From Alphaproteobacteria bacterium (GTDB lineage Bacteria; Pseudomonadota; Alphaproteobacteria; UBA6615), in NCBI GenBank assembly GCA_050246875.1, contig JBFWVF010000005.1, positions 192,212-256,211 of the forward strand: a DNA stretch of 64,000 nt. Reading direction: 5' to 3'. Under the pieces are notes generated by a model, which was not told where the DNA came from, did not search any database, and saw only the letters and a list, made by a program, of their open reading frames with translations. Shown in pieces: positions 132 through 61,996 of this stretch. The position numbers and the translations under genes were made by a program. Position 1 is the stretch's first letter, and each line of letters begins with the position of its first letter.

Positions 132-2381
132 TTGAGCGACACCACATCCGCCGTTCCGAACGCGGCCGTCGCCCGCTGGCGTCAATGGCCGGTCGTCCGC
201 CGCCTGACGCTGGCGGTCGCCGTCATTGCCGTGCTGGCCGGCGCGGCGACGTTCCTCGTCCTCACCGGCACCGCCGGCTTCGGCATCAACCAGGACACGC
301 TGCTGGTCCTGCTGGTCGTCGACGTGGCCGTGGTGCTCTGCCTCGGCGCGCTCGTCGGCTATGCGATCGTGACGCTGTGGGCCGAGCGCCGGGCCGGCGC
401 GGTCGGTGCCCGGCTGCATGTCCGCCTCGTCGCCCTGTTCAGCGTCGTCGCCGTGGTGCCCGCCATCATCGTCGCGGTGATGGCGGCGCTGTTCTTCAAT
501 TTCGAGGTCAAGACCTGGTTCAACGAGCGGGTGCGGACCGCCGTCGACAACTCCGTCGCCGTCGCCGAGGGCTACCTGCGCGAGCATAAGCAGGTCATCG
601 CCGGCGACGCCGTCGCCATGGCCAACGACCTCTACCGCATCTGGCCGGCCATCCTGTCGTCGAGCGGCACGGCCGAGCGGGCGGTCGACGCCCAGGCCGC
701 CATGCGCTCGCTGTCGGAGGCGGTGGTCTTCGACTCGACGGGCCGGGTGCTCGCGCGCACCGGCCTCGCCCTCGAAAGCGAGCCGCCGCCGGCCTGGGCG
801 CTGGAGCGCGCGAGCGGCGGCGAACTGGTCATCCTGACCGGCAGCAACGACGACCGCGTGCGCGCCCTTGTCGGCCTCAACACGGTGCCGCGGGCCTTCC
901 TCTACGTCACCCGCTTCATCGACCCGACGGTGCTGCGCCACCTCGAACGCACGCGCCAGGCGGCGACGGAATACAATCGCCTCGAGGAACTGCGCGGCGA
1001 CCTGCAGGCGACGATGGCCGGCATCTTCGTCGCCTTCGCCCTGCTGCTGCTGTTCGCCGCGATCTCGGTCGGCCTCGCCCTCGCCAACCGTCTGGCGCGG
1101 CCGATCGCGCGCCTCATCGCGGCGGCGGAGCAGGTGCGCGCCGGCGACCTCGACGCCCGCGTGACGCCGTCGGGCGACGAGCCGGAGCTCGGCTCGCTGA
1201 TGCGCTCGTTCAACCGCATGACCGAGCAGCTTTCGCAGCAGCACCGCGAACTGACCGACGCCAACCGGCAGCTCGAGGATCGCCGGCGCTTCACCGAAAC
1301 CGTGCTGGCCGGCGTCTCGGCCGGCGTGCTGGGCCTCGATGCCGAGGGCCGCGTGACGCTGCCCAACCGCTCGGCGGCGACGCTGCTGGGGCTCGGCCGC
1401 GGCGAACTGGCCGGCCGGCCGCTCGGCGAGGCGGTGCCGGAAATGTCCGGTCTGGTCGAGGCGGCGCGCCAGCGCCCCGACCGCCGCGTCGAGGACCAGG
1501 TGACCGTGCGCCGCGATGGCGAGGCCCGCACCCTGCTGGTCCGCATCGTCGCCGAGCGTGGCGAGGACGAGGCCGCGCCCGGCTATGTCGTGACGTTCGA
1601 CGACATCACCGAGCTCGAGGCGGCGCAGCGCAAGGCGGCGTGGGCCGACGTCGCGCGCCGCATCGCCCACGAGATCAGGAACCCGCTGACCCCCATCCAG
1701 CTCTCGGCCGAGCGCCTGAAGCGCAAGTACGCCGGTGAGGTGACGAGCGACCGGACGGTGTTCGAGCAGTACACCGACACCATCGTGCGCCAGGTCGGCG
1801 ACATCCGCCGCATGGTCGACGAGTTCTCCGCCTTCGCCCGCATGCCGCAGCCCGAGCCGGCGCTGGTCGACCTGCGCACGCTGGCGCGCGACGGCGTCTT
1901 CGTGCAGCGCACGGCGCACCCCGAGGTGCGCTTCGAGTTGCGCCTGCCGGACGCGCCGGTGACGTGCCGGTGCGATGCCCGGCTGGTCGCGCAGGCGATC
2001 ACCAACCTGCTGCAGAATGCCGTCGAGGCGATCGAGGGCCGCGAGGGCGATGTGCCGCCCGGCGAGATCGTGGTTGCCCTGGAGCCCGGCGACGAGACGG
2101 TCGCGCTGTCCATCGAGGACAACGGCCGTGGCCTGCCGGTGGCCGAGCGGGCGCGGCTGACCGAGCCCTACGTGACGACGCGCGCCAAGGGGACGGGGCT
2201 CGGCCTCGCCATCGTCAAGAAAATCGTGGAGGACCACGGCGGCCGTCTGATACTGGAGGATCGCGGTGCGGGGGCCGCTACGGCAGCGGGAGCGGCGGGC
2301 GCACGCGTTGTGCTGACGTTCCCGATGCCGGCGACCGGTGAGTCGGCGTCGTCCGCGGCAGCGCGGCCGGCGGCCGAGTAA
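132..2381 (+). CDS. ntrY: Two-component sensor histidine kinase NtrY (TM-HAMP-PAS-HisKA-HATPase)
   Basis: 749-aa ORF. N-terminal TM helices, HAMP region (…RLARPIARLIAAAEQVRAGDLDARV…), H-box HEIRNPLTPIQLSAERL, N-box QNAVEAI and a G-box (GTGLGLAIVKKIVEDHGG). Followed by ntrX. TTG start at 132 is uncertain. Confidence 0.85.
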   Translation: MSDTTSAVPNAAVARWRQWPVVRRLTLAVAVIAVLAGAATFLVLTGTAGFGINQDTLLVLLVVDVAVVLCLGALVGYAIVTLWAERRAGAVGARLHVRLVALFSVVAVVPAIIVAVMAALFFNFEVKTWFNERVRTAVDNSVAVAEGYLREHKQVIAGDAVAMANDLYRIWPAILSSSGTAERAVDAQAAMRSLSEAVVFDSTGRVLARTGLALESEPPPAWALERASGGELVILTGSNDDRVRALVGLNTVPRAFLYVTRFIDPTVLRHLERTRQAATEYNRLEELRGDLQATMAGIFVAFALLLLFAAISVGLALANRLARPIARLIAAAEQVRAGDLDARVTPSGDEPELGSLMRSFNRMTEQLSQQHRELTDANRQLEDRRRFTETVLAGVSAGVLGLDAEGRVTLPNRSAATLLGLGRGELAGRPLGEAVPEMSGLVEAARQRPDRRVEDQVTVRRDGEARTLLVRIVAERGEDEAAPGYVVTFDDITELEAAQRKAAWADVARRIAHEIRNPLTPIQLSAERLKRKYAGEVTSDRTVFEQYTDTIVRQVGDIRRMVDEFSAFARMPQPEPALVDLRTLARDGVFVQRTAHPEVRFELRLPDAPVTCRCDARLVAQAITNLLQNAVEAIEGREGDVPPGEIVVALEPGDETVALSIEDNGRGLPVAERARLTEPYVTTRAKGTGLGLAIVKKIVEDHGGRLILEDRGAGAATAAGAAGARVVLTFPMPATGESASSAAARPAAE

Positions 2382-2398
2382 CGCGGAACGACCCGATT

Positions 2399-3843
<1,445 letters not shown>

Positions 3844-16164: not shown

Positions 16165-16411
16165 CGCCCGCGATCTCTCAGGCGCGGACGGCGCGGGCGG
16201 CGCGGGGACGCGGGTGGCGTCGCGCCGCGACCGTCCGGGCCGTGCGCCGGCCAGGAATTACCGGAAATTGCATTTTGTTTTGCAATATTCTCTCCGGAAA
16301 GGCAACACAAAATCGTAGAAAATAATATTCATATTGCTATAAATAATCGCTCTCCTCATCGCATGGTTTTGTCTAAATGTCTTGACGTTCTATTTATTGT
16401 TCTTTCTGATT

Positions 16412-16427
16412 TTAACCTCGGATTAAC
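16412..16427 (+). promoter_or_regulatory. CtrA-box-like motif TTAACCTCGGATTAAC (TTAA-N7-TTAA) in flp promoter
   Basis: Perfect TTAA-N7-TTAA about 50 bp upstream of the flp start, in a 300-bp AT-rich promoter region. Caulobacter pilA is CtrA-dependent (established). A TTGACG -35-like hexamer lies at about 16382. Confidence 0.5.
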
Positions 16428-16478: not shown

Positions 16479-16697
16479 ATGCACAGGTTCCTTACCCGCT
16501 TCGTCCGGGACGAGTCCGGCGCCACGGCCATCGAGTACGGCCTCATCGCCGCCCTCGTCTCGGTCGCGGCGATCGGCGCCCTCAGCCTGATGGGCGGCTC
16601 GCTCGACACCATGTTCACCGCCGTGTCGGGGCAGCTCGACAGTGCGGTCAGCGCCATGCCCACCACCCCGCCGCCGGCCGAGCCGCCGGCGGAGTAG
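16479..16697 (+). CDS. flp: Flp/Fap family type IVb pilin
   Basis: 72 aa. Flp motif GATAIEYGLIAALVSVAAI after a short charged leader. Good RBS GGGAGA. First gene of the tad locus. Confidence 0.9.
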   Translation: MHRFLTRFVRDESGATAIEYGLIAALVSVAAIGALSLMGGSLDTMFTAVSGQLDSAVSAMPTTPPPAEPPAE

Positions 16698-38128: not shown

Positions 38129-39099
38129 GGCGCACCGATGCGGTCGGACAGCAGGCCGACCGCCGTGGCGAAGTAGAGCGAACGGTTCCAGCGCATGATG
38201 GCGCGGTAGTTGTCGTAGACGAGGAAGGCCGGCCCGCCGGCACCGCCCGGCAGGACGATCGAGGCCGACAGGTCGCGCTCGGGCAGGTCGCCGCCGTCGG
38301 CGCGCCGCACGCCGCGCTTCTGCCACTCGGTCAGCGTCTTCGCCACCTTGAGGTCGGCGTCGGCGGCGTCGAAGCCGGCCGGCAGTTTCACCTCGCGCCC
38401 CCAGGTCAGGTCGTTGTTCCAGCCGACGCTTTTCAGGTAGTTGGCGGCCGAGGCGAAGACGTCGGCATGGGTGCCCCAGATGTCCTTGGCGCCGTCGCCG
38501 TTCCAGTCGATGGCGTAGGCGAGGAAGCTCGACGGCATGAACTGGCTGTGGCCCATGGCCCCGGCCCAGGAGCCCATCATGCTGGCCGGCCGGACGTGGC
38601 CCTGATCGACGATCTTCAGCGCCGCCAGCAGCTCGCCGCGGAAATAGTCGGCCCGCCTGCCCTCCCAGGCCAGCGTCGCCAGCGCGCCGATGACCGAAAA
38701 ACTGCCGGTGTAGCCGCCGTAGCTGGTCTCGATGCCCCACAGGGCGACGATGAAGCGCGGCTGCACGCCGAAGCGTTGCGCCACCTCCTCGAGGATCGCC
38801 CTGTGCTCGACGAGCTTGGCGCGGCCGGTGGCGATGCGCGTCGGCGACAGGATGCGCCCGATGTAGTCGTCGAAGGTGACGGTGCGCTCGGGCTGCTTGC
38901 GGTCCAGTTCGATGACGCGCGGAATGGGTTCGAGGCCGGTCAGCGCCGCCTCGATCGTGGCCGCCGAGATGCCCTTGGCCGCCGCCTCGCTGCGAAAGCC
39001 GTCGAGCCAGTTGTTGAAGTCGGCATCGGTCGCCGCGGCGGCCGGTGCCGTCGCGAGGAATGCCGTCATGGCCAGAATGCCGAAGCTGCGCGCCCGCAT
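38125..39099 (-). CDS. mltB: Lytic murein transglycosylase (MltB family)
   Basis: Signal peptide, …VALWGIETSYGGYTG…, …MGHSQFMPSSF… MltB catalytic region; ATGA overlap with rlpA. Confidence 0.85.
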   Translation of the reverse strand: MRARSFGILAMTAFLATAPAAAATDADFNNWLDGFRSEAAAKGISAATIEAALTGLEPIPRVIELDRKQPERTVTFDDYIGRILSPTRIATGRAKLVEHRAILEEVAQRFGVQPRFIVALWGIETSYGGYTGSFSVIGALATLAWEGRRADYFRGELLAALKIVDQGHVRPASMMGSWAGAMGHSQFMPSSFLAYAIDWNGDGAKDIWGTHADVFASAANYLKSVGWNNDLTWGREVKLPAGFDAADADLKVAKTLTEWQKRGVRRADGGDLPERDLSASIVLPGGAGGPAFLVYDNYRAIMRWNRSLYFATAVGLLSDRIGAP

Positions 39100-39249
39100 C
39101 GCGCCGAACCTGTCCGCTGCCGTCGGACACAAGCCTGTGCCATACGCCCGCGCGTCGGCGCAATCCCGTGCGCGTGACGTTTCGCCATCCGGCGGCGTCT
39201 GCCAATTGGCACGGTGACCGTGTAGAATGTGGCGACTCCGGGGGCCGCG

Positions 39250-40296
39250 ATGATTTTCCGCCAGCTCTTCGACAAGACCTCCTCGACCTACACCTACCTG
39301 CTGGCCAGCCGTCCCGGCGGCGAGGCGCTGATCATCGACCCGGTGATCGAGAATGTGCCGCTCTACCTGCGGCTGGTCGATGAACTCGGCCTGCGGCTGC
39401 TGAAGGCCGTCGATACGCACGTCCATGCCGACCACATCACCGGCCTTGGTGCGCTGCGCGACCGCACCCGCTGCATCACCGTGATGGGCGAGCAGGCGGG
39501 CGTCGACACGGTCTCGATGCGCGTGGCCGACGGCGACACGGTGGACATCGAGGGGCTCAGCCTGCGCGCCCTCTACACCCCGGGCCACACGGACGATTCC
39601 TACTGCTTCGCCATGGACGACCGGGTCTTCACCGGCGACACGCTGCTGATCCGCGGCAGCGGCCGCACGGACTTCCAGAATGGCGATTCGCGCGCGGCTT
39701 ACGACTCGATCTTCAACAAGCTGCTGAAGCTGCCCGACGACACGCTGGTCTACCCGGCGCACGACTACAAGGGCGAGACGGTGTCGACCATCGGCGAGGA
39801 GCGACGCTTCAACCCGCGCCTGCAGGTGAAGTCCGCCGACGAGTACGCGGCGCTGATGGCCGGCCTCAAGCTCGGCAATCCGAAGATGATGGACGTGGCC
39901 GTGCCGGCCAATCGCAAGGTCGGTCTCGACCAGGCCGAACTCGCCGTCGCCGGCCTGTCGCTGGAGCCCGCCGACACCATCCCGCGCCTGCCGCTGAAGG
40001 ACATGCTGCTGGTCGACCTGCGCGACGACGGCGAGCGCGAGCGCACCGGCATCATCCCCGGCTCGCTGCACGCGCCCTACGGCGAACTGGCGCACTACCT
40101 GCGCACCGGCGGCATCCTCGCCGAACTGGCGCGCGCATCGGGCCGCCGCCTCGTCTTCTACTGCGCCTTCGGCGAACGCTCGGCGCTGGCCGTGAAGGCC
40201 GCGATGGAAGCCGGCCTGCCCCCGCCCCTCAATTTGCGCGGCGGCGTCGACGCCTGGAAGAAGGCGGGCGGTCCGCTGGAGCGGCTGGCGGGGTGA
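39250..40296 (+). CDS. Persulfide dioxygenase (ETHE1-type MBL fold) fused to C-terminal rhodanese domain
   Basis: MIFRQLFDKTSSTYTYLLAS…THVHADHITG… (PDO/Blh) plus C-terminal rhodanese with catalytic Cys (FYCAFGERS). The first ATG at 39229 would add 7 residues; MIFRQLFD is the typical PDO start. Confidence 0.85.
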   Translation: MIFRQLFDKTSSTYTYLLASRPGGEALIIDPVIENVPLYLRLVDELGLRLLKAVDTHVHADHITGLGALRDRTRCITVMGEQAGVDTVSMRVADGDTVDIEGLSLRALYTPGHTDDSYCFAMDDRVFTGDTLLIRGSGRTDFQNGDSRAAYDSIFNKLLKLPDDTLVYPAHDYKGETVSTIGEERRFNPRLQVKSADEYAALMAGLKLGNPKMMDVAVPANRKVGLDQAELAVAGLSLEPADTIPRLPLKDMLLVDLRDDGERERTGIIPGSLHAPYGELAHYLRTGGILAELARASGRRLVFYCAFGERSALAVKAAMEAGLPPPLNLRGGVDAWKKAGGPLERLAG

Positions 40297-40313
40297 GCGA
40301 TGGACGCAACTGG

Positions 40314-40481
40314 ATGATCACTTTCTATACGTTCCGAATATTCTTTCTGGCAGGCATCGTATACGTGGTCTCGGATATCCTGTTTAAAAAAAGGATAAAG
40401 AACTTCCTCCCGAAGCGTCATGGAATCAAAATATCGTCTTTCGATATTTGTCTCAATTGTAGTCGAGTGATAGTTTATTGA
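40314..40481 (+). CDS. Small hypothetical single-TM peptide (55 aa) in AT-rich islet
   Basis: MITFYTFRIFFLAGIVYVVSDILFKKRIKNFLPKRHGIKISSFDICLNCSRVIVY. Hydrophobic N-terminal helix then a basic tail. ~30% GC versus ~67% genome. The ORF track lists a GTG start at 40293 overlapping the PDO stop. Confidence 0.3.
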   Translation: MITFYTFRIFFLAGIVYVVSDILFKKRIKNFLPKRHGIKISSFDICLNCSRVIVY

Positions 40482-40498
40482 GGATAGGGAATATTAAA

Positions 40499-40645
40499 AT
40501 GAAAATACCTATGAAACTGGTTGAGTTGAAATTAAAAAAGGGGAAAAATGCTTCCAGAAATCTTAAATATTTCTATTGGTTTGTTCAGTTTTATCTAATA
40601 ATTCTTATAGCTTATGTATTGTATCGGTGGATCGAAAAAATGTAG
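40499..40645 (+). CDS. Small hypothetical peptide (48 aa), basic N-terminus + C-terminal TM helix, in AT-rich islet
   Basis: ATG preceded by RBS GAGGATAGGG. MKIPMKLVELKLKKGKNASRNLKYFYWFVQFYLIILIAYVLYRWIEKM*. Below the ORF-track size cutoff; found by reading the sequence. Confidence 0.3.
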   Translation: MKIPMKLVELKLKKGKNASRNLKYFYWFVQFYLIILIAYVLYRWIEKM

Positions 40646-40687
40646 GTGCGTCGCACGTTGATGCGAGTGCGTTCAAAGGGGAATGAT

Positions 40688-41452
40688 ATGGCCGGTCGGG
40701 TGGCGGGGAAGGTGGCGCTGGTGACGGGAGGCGCGCGCGGGATCGGGCGGGCCTGCGCCGAGCTGTTCGTCGCCGAGGGCGGGCGCGTGGCGCTGTTCGA
40801 CCGCAACGCCGAGGGCGCGGCGGCGGCGGCGCGGGAGATCGGTGCCGGCACCGTCGCCATCGCCGGTGACGTCACCGTCGAGGCCGACTGGCAGCGCGCG
40901 GTGGCGCAAACCGTCGAGGCGCTGGGCGGCCTCAACATCCTGGTCAACGCCGCCGGCATTGCCATCGTCGGCACCGTCGAGGACACCTCGCTGGAGGACT
41001 GGAAGCGCGTCCACGCGGTCGACCTCGACAGCGTCTTCCTCGGCTGCAAGACGGCCATCCCGGCGATGGCCAAATCGGGCGGCGGCTCGATCGTCAACCT
41101 GTCCTCGATCGCCGGCATCGTCGCCAGCCACAACTTCGCCGCCTACAACTCGGCCAAGGCCGGGGTGCGGCACCTGACCAAGTCGGTGGCGCTGCACTGC
41201 GCGCGCAAGAAATACGGCATCCGCTGCAATTCGGTGCATCCGGCGTTCATCGATACGCCCATGCTCGACGACATCATGCGCAAGGACCGCACGCGCGACG
41301 AAAGCGTCGACCGGCTGGCCTCGCAGCTTCCCCTCGGCCGCGTCGGCACGGCGCGCGATATCGCCTATGGCGTGCTCTACCTCGCCAGCGAAGAGAGCGC
41401 CTTCATGACCGGTGCCGAGCTGGTGCTCGACGGCGGCGTCAGCGCCATGTAG
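40688..41452 (+). CDS. SDR-family oxidoreductase
   Basis: VALVTGGARGIGRA, NAAG, catalytic YNSAKAG triad region. Confidence 0.85.
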   Translation: MAGRVAGKVALVTGGARGIGRACAELFVAEGGRVALFDRNAEGAAAAAREIGAGTVAIAGDVTVEADWQRAVAQTVEALGGLNILVNAAGIAIVGTVEDTSLEDWKRVHAVDLDSVFLGCKTAIPAMAKSGGGSIVNLSSIAGIVASHNFAAYNSAKAGVRHLTKSVALHCARKKYGIRCNSVHPAFIDTPMLDDIMRKDRTRDESVDRLASQLPLGRVGTARDIAYGVLYLASEESAFMTGAELVLDGGVSAM

Positions 41453-41520
41453 GCCGGTTGCCGCCGCGCGGCCGGCGGGACACAATCCCGGCCCCTGCCC
41501 TGCCACCGCGCGAGGCCGCC

Positions 41521-42471
41521 ATGGCGCACCACCACCTGCCGTCGAAGCCCGAGAACATCCACTGGGGCTCCTTCTCGGCGCAGCATCGCCCGGTGCTGGA
41601 GATCGCCTCGGGCGACCGCGTCACCATCGACACCATCTCCGGCGGGCGCGACCAGTTGCCGACGGAAAAGGGCGACTGGCACTACCTGCCCGACCACCTC
41701 GCCTATCTCGAGGTCGGCAAGCCGGCGATGCGCGGCCACATCATGACCGGCCCCATCGCGGTCAAGGGCGCGAAGGCCGGCAGCGTGCTGGAGGTGCGCG
41801 TCCTCGACGTGAAGCTGCGCCAGGACTGGGCGTGGAACATCATCATGCCGCTGCGCGGCTCGCTGCCGCACGACTTCAAGCAGGAGCGGCGCATGACCAT
41901 CCGCCTCGACATCGCCCGCAACAAGGCGATCATGCCGTGGGGCGTCGAGCTGGAGTGCAGCCCGTTCTTCGGCGTCATGGGCGTGGCGCCGCCGCCCAAC
42001 TGGGGCGAGATCAGTTCGATCCAGCCGCGCGCCCATGGCGGCAACCTCGACATCAAGGCCATGGTCGCCGGCTCGACCCTCTACCTGCCGGTGTGGAACG
42101 ACGGCGCCCTGTTCTCCTGCGGCGACGGCCATGCCGTGCAGGGCGACGGCGAGGTCTGCCTGTCGGCGGCCGAGACGGCGCTGACCGGCACCTTCGAGTT
42201 CCACGTCCGCGACGACATGAAGCTGGAGATGCCGCAGGCCGAGACGCCGACCGACTACGTCACCATCGGCATCGACCCCGACCTCGACGACGCGGCACAG
42301 ATGGCGCTGCGGGCGATGATCGACCTCGTCTGCTCGAAGACCAACCTCGCGCGCGAGGACGCCTTTACGCTGATGAGTCTGGCCGCCGACACCCATGTCT
42401 CGCAGCTCGTCAACGAGAACAAGGGCATCCATGTGATGCTGCCGAAGGCGGCGGTGCACGGGGCGAAGTAG
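41521..42471 (+). CDS. Acetamidase/formamidase (FmdA/AmdA) family protein
   Basis: …GGNLDIKAMVAGSTLYLPVWNDGALFSCGDGHAVQGDGEV… family signature; 316 aa. Confidence 0.8.
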   Translation: MAHHHLPSKPENIHWGSFSAQHRPVLEIASGDRVTIDTISGGRDQLPTEKGDWHYLPDHLAYLEVGKPAMRGHIMTGPIAVKGAKAGSVLEVRVLDVKLRQDWAWNIIMPLRGSLPHDFKQERRMTIRLDIARNKAIMPWGVELECSPFFGVMGVAPPPNWGEISSIQPRAHGGNLDIKAMVAGSTLYLPVWNDGALFSCGDGHAVQGDGEVCLSAAETALTGTFEFHVRDDMKLEMPQAETPTDYVTIGIDPDLDDAAQMALRAMIDLVCSKTNLAREDAFTLMSLAADTHVSQLVNENKGIHVMLPKAAVHGAK

Positions 42472-42536: not shown

Positions 42537-43346
42537 ATGCAGGGCTGCAGCCGCGTGCCGGCGCTCGGCTTCGGCACCTTCCGCATGCAGGGCGAAGAGT
42601 GCCGCGAGGCGGTGCGCTGCGCGCTGGAGACCGGCTACCGCCACATCGATACCGCGCAGGCCTACGGCAACGAGGCCGAGGTCGGCGCCGCGCTGGAGGA
42701 TGTCGGCCTGCCGCGCGAGCAGGTGTTCCTCACCACCAAGTGCCACAAGGACCACCTGACGGCGCCGGAGGTGGCGCGCTGGTTCGACAGCAGCCTGCGG
42801 GCGCTGCGCACCGACCACGTCGACCTGCTGCTGATCCACTGGCCAAGCACGAAGACGCCGCTGGGCGAGACGCTCGACGCCATGCGGGCGCTGCAGGCGA
42901 CGGGCAAGGTGAAGCACATCGGCGTCTCCAACTTTCCCGTGGCGCTGCTGCGCGAGGCGATCGAGACGCACAAGGCGCGGCTGTTCACCAACCAGATCGA
43001 GTACCATCCGCTGCTGGTGCAGCCGGCGCTCACCGACTACGTCTTCCGCCACGGCATGCTGCTGACCGGCCACTCGCCGCTGGCCACCGGCCGGCTCGTC
43101 GACCACCCCGTCCTCGCCGCCATCGGCGCCCGCTACGGCAAGTCGGCGACGCAGGTGGCGATCCGCTGGCAGCTCGAGCAGGACAAGGTGATCGTGCTGC
43201 CCAAGTCGCAAACCCCGGCGCGCATCGGCGAGAACTTCGACGTCTTCGACTTCGCCCTCGACGAGGACGACATGGCGGCCATCGCCGCCCTGCCCGGCAA
43301 CCAGCGCGGCGTCAACCCGCCCTGGGCGCCGGCGTGGGACGAGTGA
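42537..43346 (+). CDS. Aldo/keto reductase
   Basis: …VPALGFGTFRM…, …RHIDTAQAYGNE…, …LLLIHWP… AKR catalytic tetrad region; 269 aa. Confidence 0.85.
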   Translation: MQGCSRVPALGFGTFRMQGEECREAVRCALETGYRHIDTAQAYGNEAEVGAALEDVGLPREQVFLTTKCHKDHLTAPEVARWFDSSLRALRTDHVDLLLIHWPSTKTPLGETLDAMRALQATGKVKHIGVSNFPVALLREAIETHKARLFTNQIEYHPLLVQPALTDYVFRHGMLLTGHSPLATGRLVDHPVLAAIGARYGKSATQVAIRWQLEQDKVIVLPKSQTPARIGENFDVFDFALDEDDMAAIAALPGNQRGVNPPWAPAWDE

Positions 43347-60681: not shown

Positions 60682-60967
60682 GGCCTTACCTCACCTCCGC
60701 GCTCCGCCACGCCGCACCGAGTAACCACCCCGATCGACAAGGGCGGTGCCGACTTGGCGAAGTTGCTTCCCTTGCTGCGTGCAAACATTCGATATGAAGA
60801 AGACTTTGCCTCGAAAAGTGCGGCGCGAGCTGACATGGATCAATCGCGGAGAAATCTATAGGCTGTTTTGTGAAGTTCCTCCCAAGCGGCACAAGGAACA
60901 TGTTGCCAAATCCCATAAAAGTGCCATGCCTGTTGCTTGCGACTGCCGTAAAGAATGCATCAATTCT

Positions 60968-61996
60968 TTATGCAATTTTTATACGGTCCGGCGCCCAAGC
61001 GGCTTCTCGCCCGTCTGGACAAGATGGCGGCCTGCCGCCGCGATCGTCAGCCCAAGGCCGCGATTGTGCGGCGGGCTCGCAGGACGGCTGTCGGAGCAGC
61101 CCCATGCGGACCAGCACCTCGGCGACCTCGATCCGAGTCGCCGCCGCAGGTTCACACAATGGCAACCGCATTTCGGGGCGCATCCGCCCGAGCAGACTCA
61201 GCGCGAACTTCACGGGGATCGGATTGGCTTCGGTCGCGAGCGCACGCACCAAGGGCACCAGCGACGCCCCTATGGTACGCGCCTCGCCATAGTAGTCGCC
61301 GCGGCGACAGGCCGCGTCCAGCTTCGCGCATTCGCCGGGCACGACGTTGGCGAGAACGGAAATGCAGCCGTTGCCGCCTTTCATCATGAAGTCGAGGGCG
61401 GTCGCATCGTCGCCGCTGAACAGACGGAACGCCTCGCCGAGTTGACGGCGCAGATGCAACGCACGCTCCGGCCGTCCGGTTGCGTCCTTGAAGCCGACGA
61501 TCCGAGGTAACTGGGCGAGGCGCTGGAGTGTATCGGCCGTCAGTGTGACGCCGGTTCGCGCCGGCACGTCGTAGAGCAGGATGGGTATCGAAGTCGCCGC
61601 GTGGACAGCCTCGAAATGGCGGAAGATGCCCTCCTGCGGCGGCCGATTGTAGTAGGGCGTCACCACGAGCAGGCCATCAGCACCGGCCCGTTCGGCCCGT
61701 CGCGCGAGTTCGACGGCGTGCGCGGTCTCACTGGATCCGGCGCCGGCGATGACCGGCACGCGTCCATTGACCGCTTTGACCGCGAGCACGATGGTGCGCG
61801 ACTGCTCGACCGCGCTCAGTGTCGGCGCTTCGCCGGTGGTGCCGTTGACGACCAGCGCGGCGATGCCGCTGTCGACCTGCCACCGGCAGAATTCGACGAA
61901 GGCGGGCTCGTCGATGTGGCCCTGGGCGAATGGCGTCGGCGCCGCGCTGACATGGCCAGTCAACGTGTCGATGGGGAGGCGTTGTCGGTCGGTCAT
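60968..61996 (-). CDS. Dihydrodipicolinate synthase (DapA/NAL) family lyase with ~45-aa C-terminal extension
   Basis: …ALVVNGTTGEAPTLS…, …GVTPYYNRP…, Schiff-base Lys region (GFKDATG); TIM-barrel class I aldolase. Confidence 0.75.
   Translation of the reverse strand: MTDRQRLPIDTLTGHVSAAPTPFAQGHIDEPAFVEFCRWQVDSGIAALVVNGTTGEAPTLSAVEQSRTIVLAVKAVNGRVPVIAGAGSSETAHAVELARRAERAGADGLLVVTPYYNRPPQEGIFRHFEAVHAATSIPILLYDVPARTGVTLTADTLQRLAQLPRIVGFKDATGRPERALHLRRQLGEAFRLFSGDDATALDFMMKGGNGCISVLANVVPGECAKLDAACRRGDYYGEARTIGASLVPLVRALATEANPIPVKFALSLLGRMRPEMRLPLCEPAAATRIEVAEVLVRMGLLRQPSCEPAAQSRPWADDRGGRPPSCPDGREAAWAPDRIKIA

Follow-up and report, generated by a model that had tools for sequence, protein, structure and literature searches.

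In a 64-kb stretch of contig JBFWVF010000005.1 of an uncultured alphaproteobacterium (assembly GCA_050246875.1; the whole 64-kb stretch is called the window below), a gene for a fused persulfide dioxygenase and rhodanese (PDO) and a gene for a short-chain dehydrogenase (SDR) are separated by an islet of AT-rich DNA that holds two micro-open reading frames (ORFs), designated here pep1 and pep2. The average guanine-plus-cytosine (GC) content of the window is 70.5%, and the 1-kb flanks of the islet have 69.9% (left) and 71.0% (right). A first-pass annotation of this DNA had noted a sharp GC drop between the two genes; the contrast was borne out, although the flanks are slightly richer in GC than the ~67% it gave. 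The GC content is 36.6% across positions 40297-40687 and 33.8% across 40300-40645, with a minimum of 27-30% in windows of 100-200 bp. Among the 200-bp windows across the 64 kb (mean 0.705, standard deviation 0.056), the islet is the lowest-GC stretch.

The extent of the islet was determined from alignments to three close relatives, L083, L085, and L086 (Table 1). In these relatives, the PDO-side homology ends within a few bases of the PDO stop codon (~40300) and restarts at position 40648 (GCGTCGCACGYTGATGCGAG...), 40 nt upstream of the SDR start. Since these alignments fix the borders at 40301 and 40647, the islet is 347 bp long with ~34% GC, rather than the 390 bp initially assigned to it, which had covered the whole intergenic space. 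Its left edge falls 13 nt before the ATG codon of pep1 and its right edge 2 nt past the stop codon of pep2. Thus, the insert consists of two whole ORFs and does not look like a random slice of a larger gene.

Table 1. Features of the PDO-SDR locus in the window, and the relatives used for comparison (TM, transmembrane; MITE, miniature inverted-repeat transposable element; MAG, metagenome-assembled genome)
Feature	Sequence or source	Position	Strand	Basis or remark
AT-rich islet, strain-specific DNA	Window	40301-40647	.	Composition; alignment to relatives
pep1, 55 aa; N-terminal TM-like helix, basic C-terminal tail with CxxC motif	Window	40314-40481	+	ORF list, hydropathy, charge
Shine-Dalgarno-like GAGGATAGGGA, 6 nt 5' of the pep2 ATG	Window	40482-40492	+	Read from the sequence
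pep2, 48 aa; basic N-terminal half, C-terminal TM-like helix	Window	40499-40645	+	ORF list, hydropathy, charge
Fused persulfide dioxygenase (metallo-beta-lactamase fold)/rhodanese gene (PDO), core gene	Window	39250-40296	+	Pfam Lactamase_B and Rhodanese
Conserved SDR leader with dyad and SDR ribosome-binding site	Window	40648-40687	+	Near-identical in L083 and L085
Short-chain dehydrogenase gene (SDR), core gene	Window	40688-41452	+	Pfam adh_short_C2, E = 3e-63
Relative L086 (closest)	JGI 3300020214			90% PDO-side DNA identity to the window
Relative L085	JGI 3300015615			88% PDO-side DNA identity to the window
Relative L083	GCA_009691025.1			85.5% PDO-side DNA identity to the window
Relative L002	MAG, Proteobacteria bacterium			73% PDO-side protein identity to the window
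MITE-like repeats	L083	12565-12710, 12726-12895, 16483-16544, 18473-18591		
MITE-like repeat	L085	2408-2556		
MITE-like repeat	L086	2844-2990		

Both micro-ORFs reported by the first-pass annotation are present at the lengths it gave. The predicted product of pep1, read from an ATG to a TGA codon, ends in ...DICLNCSRVIVY and has its best 19-residue Kyte-Doolittle window at the N-terminus (1.89), and that of pep2, read from an ATG to a TAG codon, has it at the C-terminus (1.72). Both peptides are strongly charged, with a net charge of +7 for a 62-residue form of pep1 and +10 for a 55-residue form of pep2, in agreement with the initial description of one TM helix and one basic segment in each. 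These longer forms would start at alternative in-frame codons, namely GTG for pep1 (40293, sharing bases with the stop codon of PDO as GTGA) and TTG for pep2 (40478). Single-sequence AlphaFold2 models predict helices at residues 2-31 and 43-54 of pep1 (predicted local distance difference test score, pLDDT, of 71) and one helix at residues 6-47 of pep2 (pLDDT 83). Neither reading frame is interrupted by a stop codon, versus four and two stops in the remaining plus-strand frames over pep1 and seven and two over pep2. The pep2 start is preceded by a good Shine-Dalgarno-like sequence.

Comparison of the two peptide sequences revealed no relation to each other. A single frameshifted gene made up of pep1 and pep2 was considered and dropped, the ORFs sitting in different frames. 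An alternative genetic code with TGA as tryptophan was dropped as well: it gives no longer pep1, because an in-frame TAG follows one codon after the TGA. A five-codon mini-ORF (ATG GAC GCA ACT GGA TGA) at 40300-40317 bridges the PDO stop codon and the pep1 start, with its own stop overlapping the pep1 ATG (ATGA). It might pass ribosomes on to pep1 after termination, or it might be a product of chance.

The arrangement of the ORFs was compared with that in shuffled versions of the islet. At least one ATG-initiated ORF of 55 amino acids or more is found in ~10% of dinucleotide shuffles, so a single ORF of this size is unremarkable, and an open run of 65 codons is also present on the minus strand of the islet. 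In contrast, a non-overlapping pair of ATG-initiated ORFs on the same strand, both of at least 48 amino acids, appears in 0.02% of dinucleotide shuffles, and same-strand pairs of this size in at most 0.01% of local shuffles (blocks of 30, 60, or 120 nt). The tiling of the insert by ORFs therefore has a p-value of ~1e-4 to 2e-4. Of the shuffled open runs of at least 45 amino acids, 0.6% reach the charge density of pep1 and the hydropathy score of pep2 together.

The codons of both ORFs are foreign to the host. The GC content by codon position is 0.34/0.29/0.49 in pep1 and 0.31/0.19/0.33 in pep2, and the third-position values of 0.49 and 0.33, compared with 0.93 in the neighbouring genes, confirm the AT-biased codons noticed at first sight. 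An index resembling the codon adaptation index, built from twelve neighbouring genes (PDO, SDR, and an aldo-keto reductase gene among them), is 0.14 for pep1 and 0.06 for pep2, versus 0.72-0.83 for the three genes just named. Codons with less than a 10% share among their synonyms in the host make up 48% of pep1 and 67% of pep2. The islet DNA is a recent arrival, and its ORFs, if translated, would be translated poorly, given the large share of codons that the 70% GC host seldom uses.

Signals for transcription were predicted from sequence within 39000-41600. The sole plus-strand promoter-like site in the scanned region lies at 39199-39228, upstream of PDO; no plus-strand promoter-like site was predicted in the islet, and no terminator-like site was predicted anywhere in the region. 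All genes from PDO onward are co-directional and separated by short gaps. With neither a promoter nor a terminator of its own among these predictions, the islet would most simply be expressed from transcripts that start at the PDO promoter and read through.

Neither peptide belongs to a recognised family, as had been supposed from the outset. Pfam, NCBIfam, PHROGs, and PADLOC gave no match to either of them, the toxin families of Pfam and NCBIfam gave none at E-values up to 1-10, and a word index of 5.8 billion proteins gave no candidate for pep1 or pep2. Exact look-ups of both as called genes found none on record. An exhaustive phmmer search of 1.84 billion representatives, run with pep1 only, returned one match (E = 4.8e-4), a repeat protein of 3206 amino acids matched in six stretches; it was rejected as a homologue because its score is summed over the repeats. 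Protein databases under-represent uncalled ORFs of this kind. DNA-level scans, which are independent of gene calls, were also empty: neither peptide, when back-translated, was found in viral or metagenome contigs, viral contigs contained no exact 23-mer match, and blastn and tblastn against phages and plasmids found only two chance matches to Staphylococcus phages (E = 0.03-0.4). Thus, pep1 and pep2 appear to be orphans with no homologue detectable outside the lineage, the exhaustive search covering pep1 only.

Relatives of the locus were collected by a PDO protein search with contig look-ups, which yielded the three close relatives, and by a genome scan, which added a more distant syntenic locus, L002. 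The close relatives have in common the gene row Peptidase_S11/PBP5-type carboxypeptidase, DPBB_1/SPOR, SLT_2, and PDO on one side of the site and SDR and FmdA on the other, with 85-94% DNA identity in the flanks. Over a checked stretch of 7,047 bp around the islet, the window showed no mismatch to contig JBFXDC010000007.1 of an alphaproteobacterial MAG (GCA_050181545.1), and another MAG encodes PDO and SDR proteins (MGE3338142.1 and MGE3338143.1) identical to those of the window. A check for presence/absence polymorphism, suggested in the first-pass annotation, showed the islet to be missing from all four syntenic relatives, where other cargo is found instead. In L086, the site holds a MITE-like palindrome followed by a type II toxin-antitoxin pair on the minus strand (3000-3693), which consists of an MqsA/NadS-like helix-turn-helix (HTH) antitoxin and a RelE-family toxin (PF06296, E = 9e-42). 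In L083, the site spans ~1.83 kb with ~58% GC and contains a MUG113/T5orf172 gene, an HTH gene, and MITE-like palindromes; the antitoxin gene is 91% identical to that of L086, and the MUG113/T5orf172 gene replaces the toxin beside it. The site in L002 is occupied by a GNAT acetyltransferase.

The cargo of L085 resembles the islet in kind. Directly after the PDO stop codon there is an AT-rich ORF (32-39% GC; 2094-2378, plus strand) of 94 amino acids with hydrophobic TM-like stretches at both ends, in place of which the JGI gene caller had called an ORF of 33 amino acids in another frame. Sequence comparison found no relation of this ORF to pep1 or pep2. AT-rich small membrane ORFs thus recur at the site in the same orientation, and they are non-homologous. 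The site of L085 further holds a MITE-like repeat, a second AT-rich ORF of 190 amino acids, and a duplicate of the PDO 3' end, 75 bp long (2530-2604) and 81% identical to positions 40235-40307 of the window. About 480 bp comprising the 94-residue AT-rich ORF and the MITE-like repeat therefore lie between two direct repeats of this 3' end, an arrangement like that left by an integration that duplicates its target. Palindromic MITE-like repeats, whose arms of 24-26 nt are 81-88% complementary, occur both at the PDO-SDR site and elsewhere in the relatives; none was found in the 64-kb window.

On these comparisons, the PDO-SDR gap is a hypervariable site of insertion and replacement, and the islet is its strain-specific cargo. 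Horizontal gene transfer is known to concentrate in hotspots flanked by core genes, where gene content turns over rapidly and many of which contain no mobile-element genes (Oliveira et al. 2017, PMC5635113), and ORFans tend to be short and rich in AT and to have a narrow distribution (Yu and Stoltzfus 2012, PMC3514957). The islet shares with the ORFans of such hotspots its shortness, a composition AT-richer than that of the host, restriction to one lineage, a position between conserved core genes with different genes in each relative, and an interval with no integrase or transposase. It differs from them in its extreme contrast (34% versus 70% GC) and tiny size of 347 bp, and in a cargo of two micro-ORFs below the usual gene-calling length; moreover, the hotspot described here is drawn from four syntenic relatives and not from a population sample. 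We therefore place the islet among the known short AT-rich ORFans in transfer hotspots and do not regard it as a new kind of system.

We consider it probable that the islet is protein-coding, or was so until recently. That it encodes two single-pass basic membrane peptides has a chance of roughly two in three if the toxin-type readings discussed below are counted as coding. The explanation that we favour, with an estimated probability of about 0.55, is that pep1 and pep2 are real orphan membrane micro-genes expressed by read-through. According to this explanation, the hypervariable gap between PDO and SDR, both conserved core genes of the same direction, recently gained foreign DNA, which would now be transcribed by read-through within the PDO-SDR-formamidase gene row. 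Translation of pep1 could begin by termination-reinitiation at the PDO stop codon, either at the overlapping GTGA or at the ATG 18 nt downstream, and pep2 could be translated from its own Shine-Dalgarno site. In both cases translation would be poor, half to two-thirds of the codons being rare in the host. By the positive-inside rule, pep1 would cross the membrane once, through its N-terminal helix, and keep its lysine/arginine-rich tail on the cytoplasmic side, and pep2 would be tail-anchored by its C-terminal helix, with the basic N-terminal half facing the cytoplasm. Our best guess at their activity is that of an accessory pair, mildly perturbing the membrane or modulating a membrane protein, such as rides with toxin-antitoxin modules in hotspots. 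What the analysis shows is the composition of the islet, its borders, the hotspot, the non-random character of the ORFs, their orphan status, and the lack of RNA or terminator signals; translation, membrane topology, and activity are inferred.

Several observations weigh against the coding interpretation. The gap contains no called gene in the gene calls of the sequence collection, and, judged from consecutive protein accessions, the NCBI pipeline placed none there either. Of the two ribosome-binding sites initially proposed, the one at pep2 holds, whereas pep1 has merely a weak Shine-Dalgarno match and no convincing site. The ORFs offer no conservation or nonsynonymous-to-synonymous substitution ratio (dN/dS) as a sign of selection, because they have no homologue. 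The shuffle tests are post hoc, as the region was chosen for its ORFs, and AT-rich DNA that codes for nothing can, through its runs of T and A, yield stretches that look hydrophobic or rich in lysine, respectively. In addition, the source of the window is a MAG.

A rival explanation is a piece of inert foreign DNA, brought in by illegitimate or flank-mediated recombination and neither usefully expressed nor selected, whose ORFs would be intact only because the DNA is young or because they were genes of the donor. The lack of homologues, the two pipelines that call no gene, the extremely poor codon fit to the host, the weak ribosome-binding site of pep1, and the fast turnover of the site, with different cargo in each relative, are all expected of such scrap. 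It accounts less well for edges that frame two whole ORFs instead of cutting a slice from a larger gene, for an ORF tiling with p ~1e-4, or for the coherent design of a TM segment plus a basic segment shared by both products, and we hold it to be possible, though clearly less likely than real micro-genes. Non-coding AT-rich DNA could also have a function of its own, as a promoter island or a patch bound by a MucR-type nucleoid protein that regulates the SDR operon. AT-rich DNA, in particular that of foreign origin, is a proposed target of MucR-type silencing in alphaproteobacteria (PMC7710501), and other AT-rich patches of the window are upstream regions, such as the one at 16250-16420 before a pilin gene. 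Yet the islet is kept in no relative, although SDR and its 40-nt leader are; it has no plus-strand promoter-like site, and a regulatory patch leaves the ORF tiling unexplained. We regard this possibility as very improbable, and a structured non-coding RNA finds no indication either: the best Rfam matches (E = 0.16-8.5) are far below the gathering scores and at chance level, and the folding z-scores of both strands are positive.

The first-pass annotation had compared the peptides with type I toxins, in which case one or both would be membrane toxins restrained by an antisense small RNA from the minus strand. Both are shorter than 70 amino acids, have a single TM segment, and have ends that are charged or aromatic, which agrees with the protein features given in Fozo et al. 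2010 (PMC2887945). The type II toxin-antitoxin pair in the hotspot of relatives and the precedent of tandem small toxins under one antisense RNA, yonT/yoyJ/SR6 (PMC5848175), point the same way, as does a minus-strand promoter-like site (40456 to 40428) from which an antisense RNA covering the 5' half of pep1 would be made. However, this single site compares with 1.3 expected from shuffles and is thus at chance level. No terminator was predicted on either strand, neither strand folds better than its shuffles (z = +0.82 and +0.19), and there is no match to an Rfam family or to any Pfam toxin family. Nor is there a long leader, with the start of pep1 just 18 nt downstream of the PDO stop; pep1 and pep2 are not duplicates of one another, and the islet abuts both of its neighbours, whereas known loci tend to lie apart from flanking genes (PMC2887945). 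A type I toxin-antitoxin locus was accordingly not supported, and the search for an antisense RNA, made by sequence prediction only, yielded nothing above chance; we consider this reading improbable.

A second comparison of the first-pass annotation, with holin/antiholin pairs, did not hold up. Small charged single-TM proteins do resemble class III holins, and the islet might then be the remnant of a phage lysis cassette. The peptides have no PHROGs match and no match in phage or viral DNA or protein, however, and neither an endolysin nor any other phage gene is nearby; the neighbours are core metabolic genes, and the SLT_2 transglycosylase upstream is a conserved core gene on the opposite strand. 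An assembly chimera is conceivable since the source is a MAG, yet two false joins restoring the same locus would be required, and the gene row is colinear with that of the relatives on both sides. Together, the holin remnant and the chimera are very unlikely. A transposable element, either a MITE or the remnant of an insertion sequence, was rejected: it would be expected to have terminal inverted repeats, a target-site duplication, or a second copy. The best inverted repeat at the borders is 9 nt long at 89% and reaches into conserved DNA, no flanking direct repeat was found, and no second copy of the islet was found in the window or in 84 loci (L001-L084). Finally, pep1 and pep2 may form a new self-contained two-peptide membrane module, composed of a toxin with a peptide antidote or immunity partner or acting in phage exclusion, that entered the PDO 3' end as a minimal cassette and would then rank among the smallest gene cassettes known. 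The different AT-rich membrane-protein cassette of L085, enclosed by direct repeats of the PDO 3' end, may be cited beside this idea, which we nonetheless rate as unlikely.

The favoured reading, orphan membrane micro-genes, can be set against three classes of small membrane proteins. With type I toxins such as Hok, Ldr, Ibs, TisB, Fst, TxpA, and ZorO (PMC2887945), the peptides share a length below 70 amino acids, one TM segment, charged or aromatic ends, an intergenic position, and the absence of annotation. They differ in that the islet has no detectable antisense RNA gene, terminator, structured leader, or toxin-family similarity, is packed between two genes of an operon-like row, and contains unrelated ORFs and not tandem duplicates. 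Class III and pinholin-type holins are likewise small and have a single TM segment; their terminal domain is highly charged, and some occur in pairs. Unlike them, the islet has no phage context, endolysin partner, or PHROGs match. Small regulatory membrane proteins such as MgrB, AcrZ, KdpF, MgtS, and CydX are ~30-60 amino acids long, have a single TM helix, and often go unannotated; they are kept together with their partner genes in evolution, and their codons are typical of the host. pep1 and pep2 resemble them in size, in the single TM helix, and in having been missed by annotation, and differ from them in being absent from close relatives and in using foreign codons.

If the peptides are made, they would enlarge the little-explored set of small membrane proteins that gene callers overlook in bacteria, and would exemplify it cleanly in an uncultured alphaproteobacterium with 70% GC. 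The locus itself is the more solid result: the gap between the PDO stop codon and the SDR leader is a point of turnover where the cargo varies by strain, and, as a natural system, it is well suited to studies of the gain and loss of very short foreign DNA segments by a chromosome. As the peptides have no homologues and the evidence is one of sequence, current understanding is left unchanged.

The flanking genes are well conserved. PDO has 85-90% DNA identity in L083, L085, and L086, and the block from 40648 through SDR and the next gene (to ~42480) is 93-94% identical in L083 and L085. On the SDR side, the conserved GCGTCGCACG bounds the insertion site opposite the PDO stop codon, and the SDR leader, which lies outside the islet, marks its right border. 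This leader contains a dyad, TCGCA-N6-TGCGA, at 40651-40666, both arms of which are kept in L083 and L085, with a difference in one loop base; for the SDR operon, it might act as an operator or form a hairpin in the leader. Another dyad, GTGCGTCGCAC, had been noticed at the right border of the islet. It does exist (40646-40656), but the 9 nt on its right-hand side fall within the SDR leader conserved in the relatives, and hence it is mostly part of that leader and not a feature of the islet.

Further downstream in the same gene row, the aldo-keto reductase gene (42537-43346, plus strand) has no aligned counterpart at that place in L083 and L085, and it represents a second insertion/deletion difference, ~2 kb downstream of the islet. 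The other GC dips of the window are milder, with 39-47% at 16.2-16.5 kb and 45-51% at 60.7-61.0 kb, the latter an intergenic patch at ~60780-60990. The second-lowest patch, 16250-16420, is located upstream of a Flp/Fap pilin gene (16479-16697, plus strand; PF04964, E = 1.4e-18), and since it precedes such a gene, the milder AT-rich patches in this DNA can be ordinary promoter regions.

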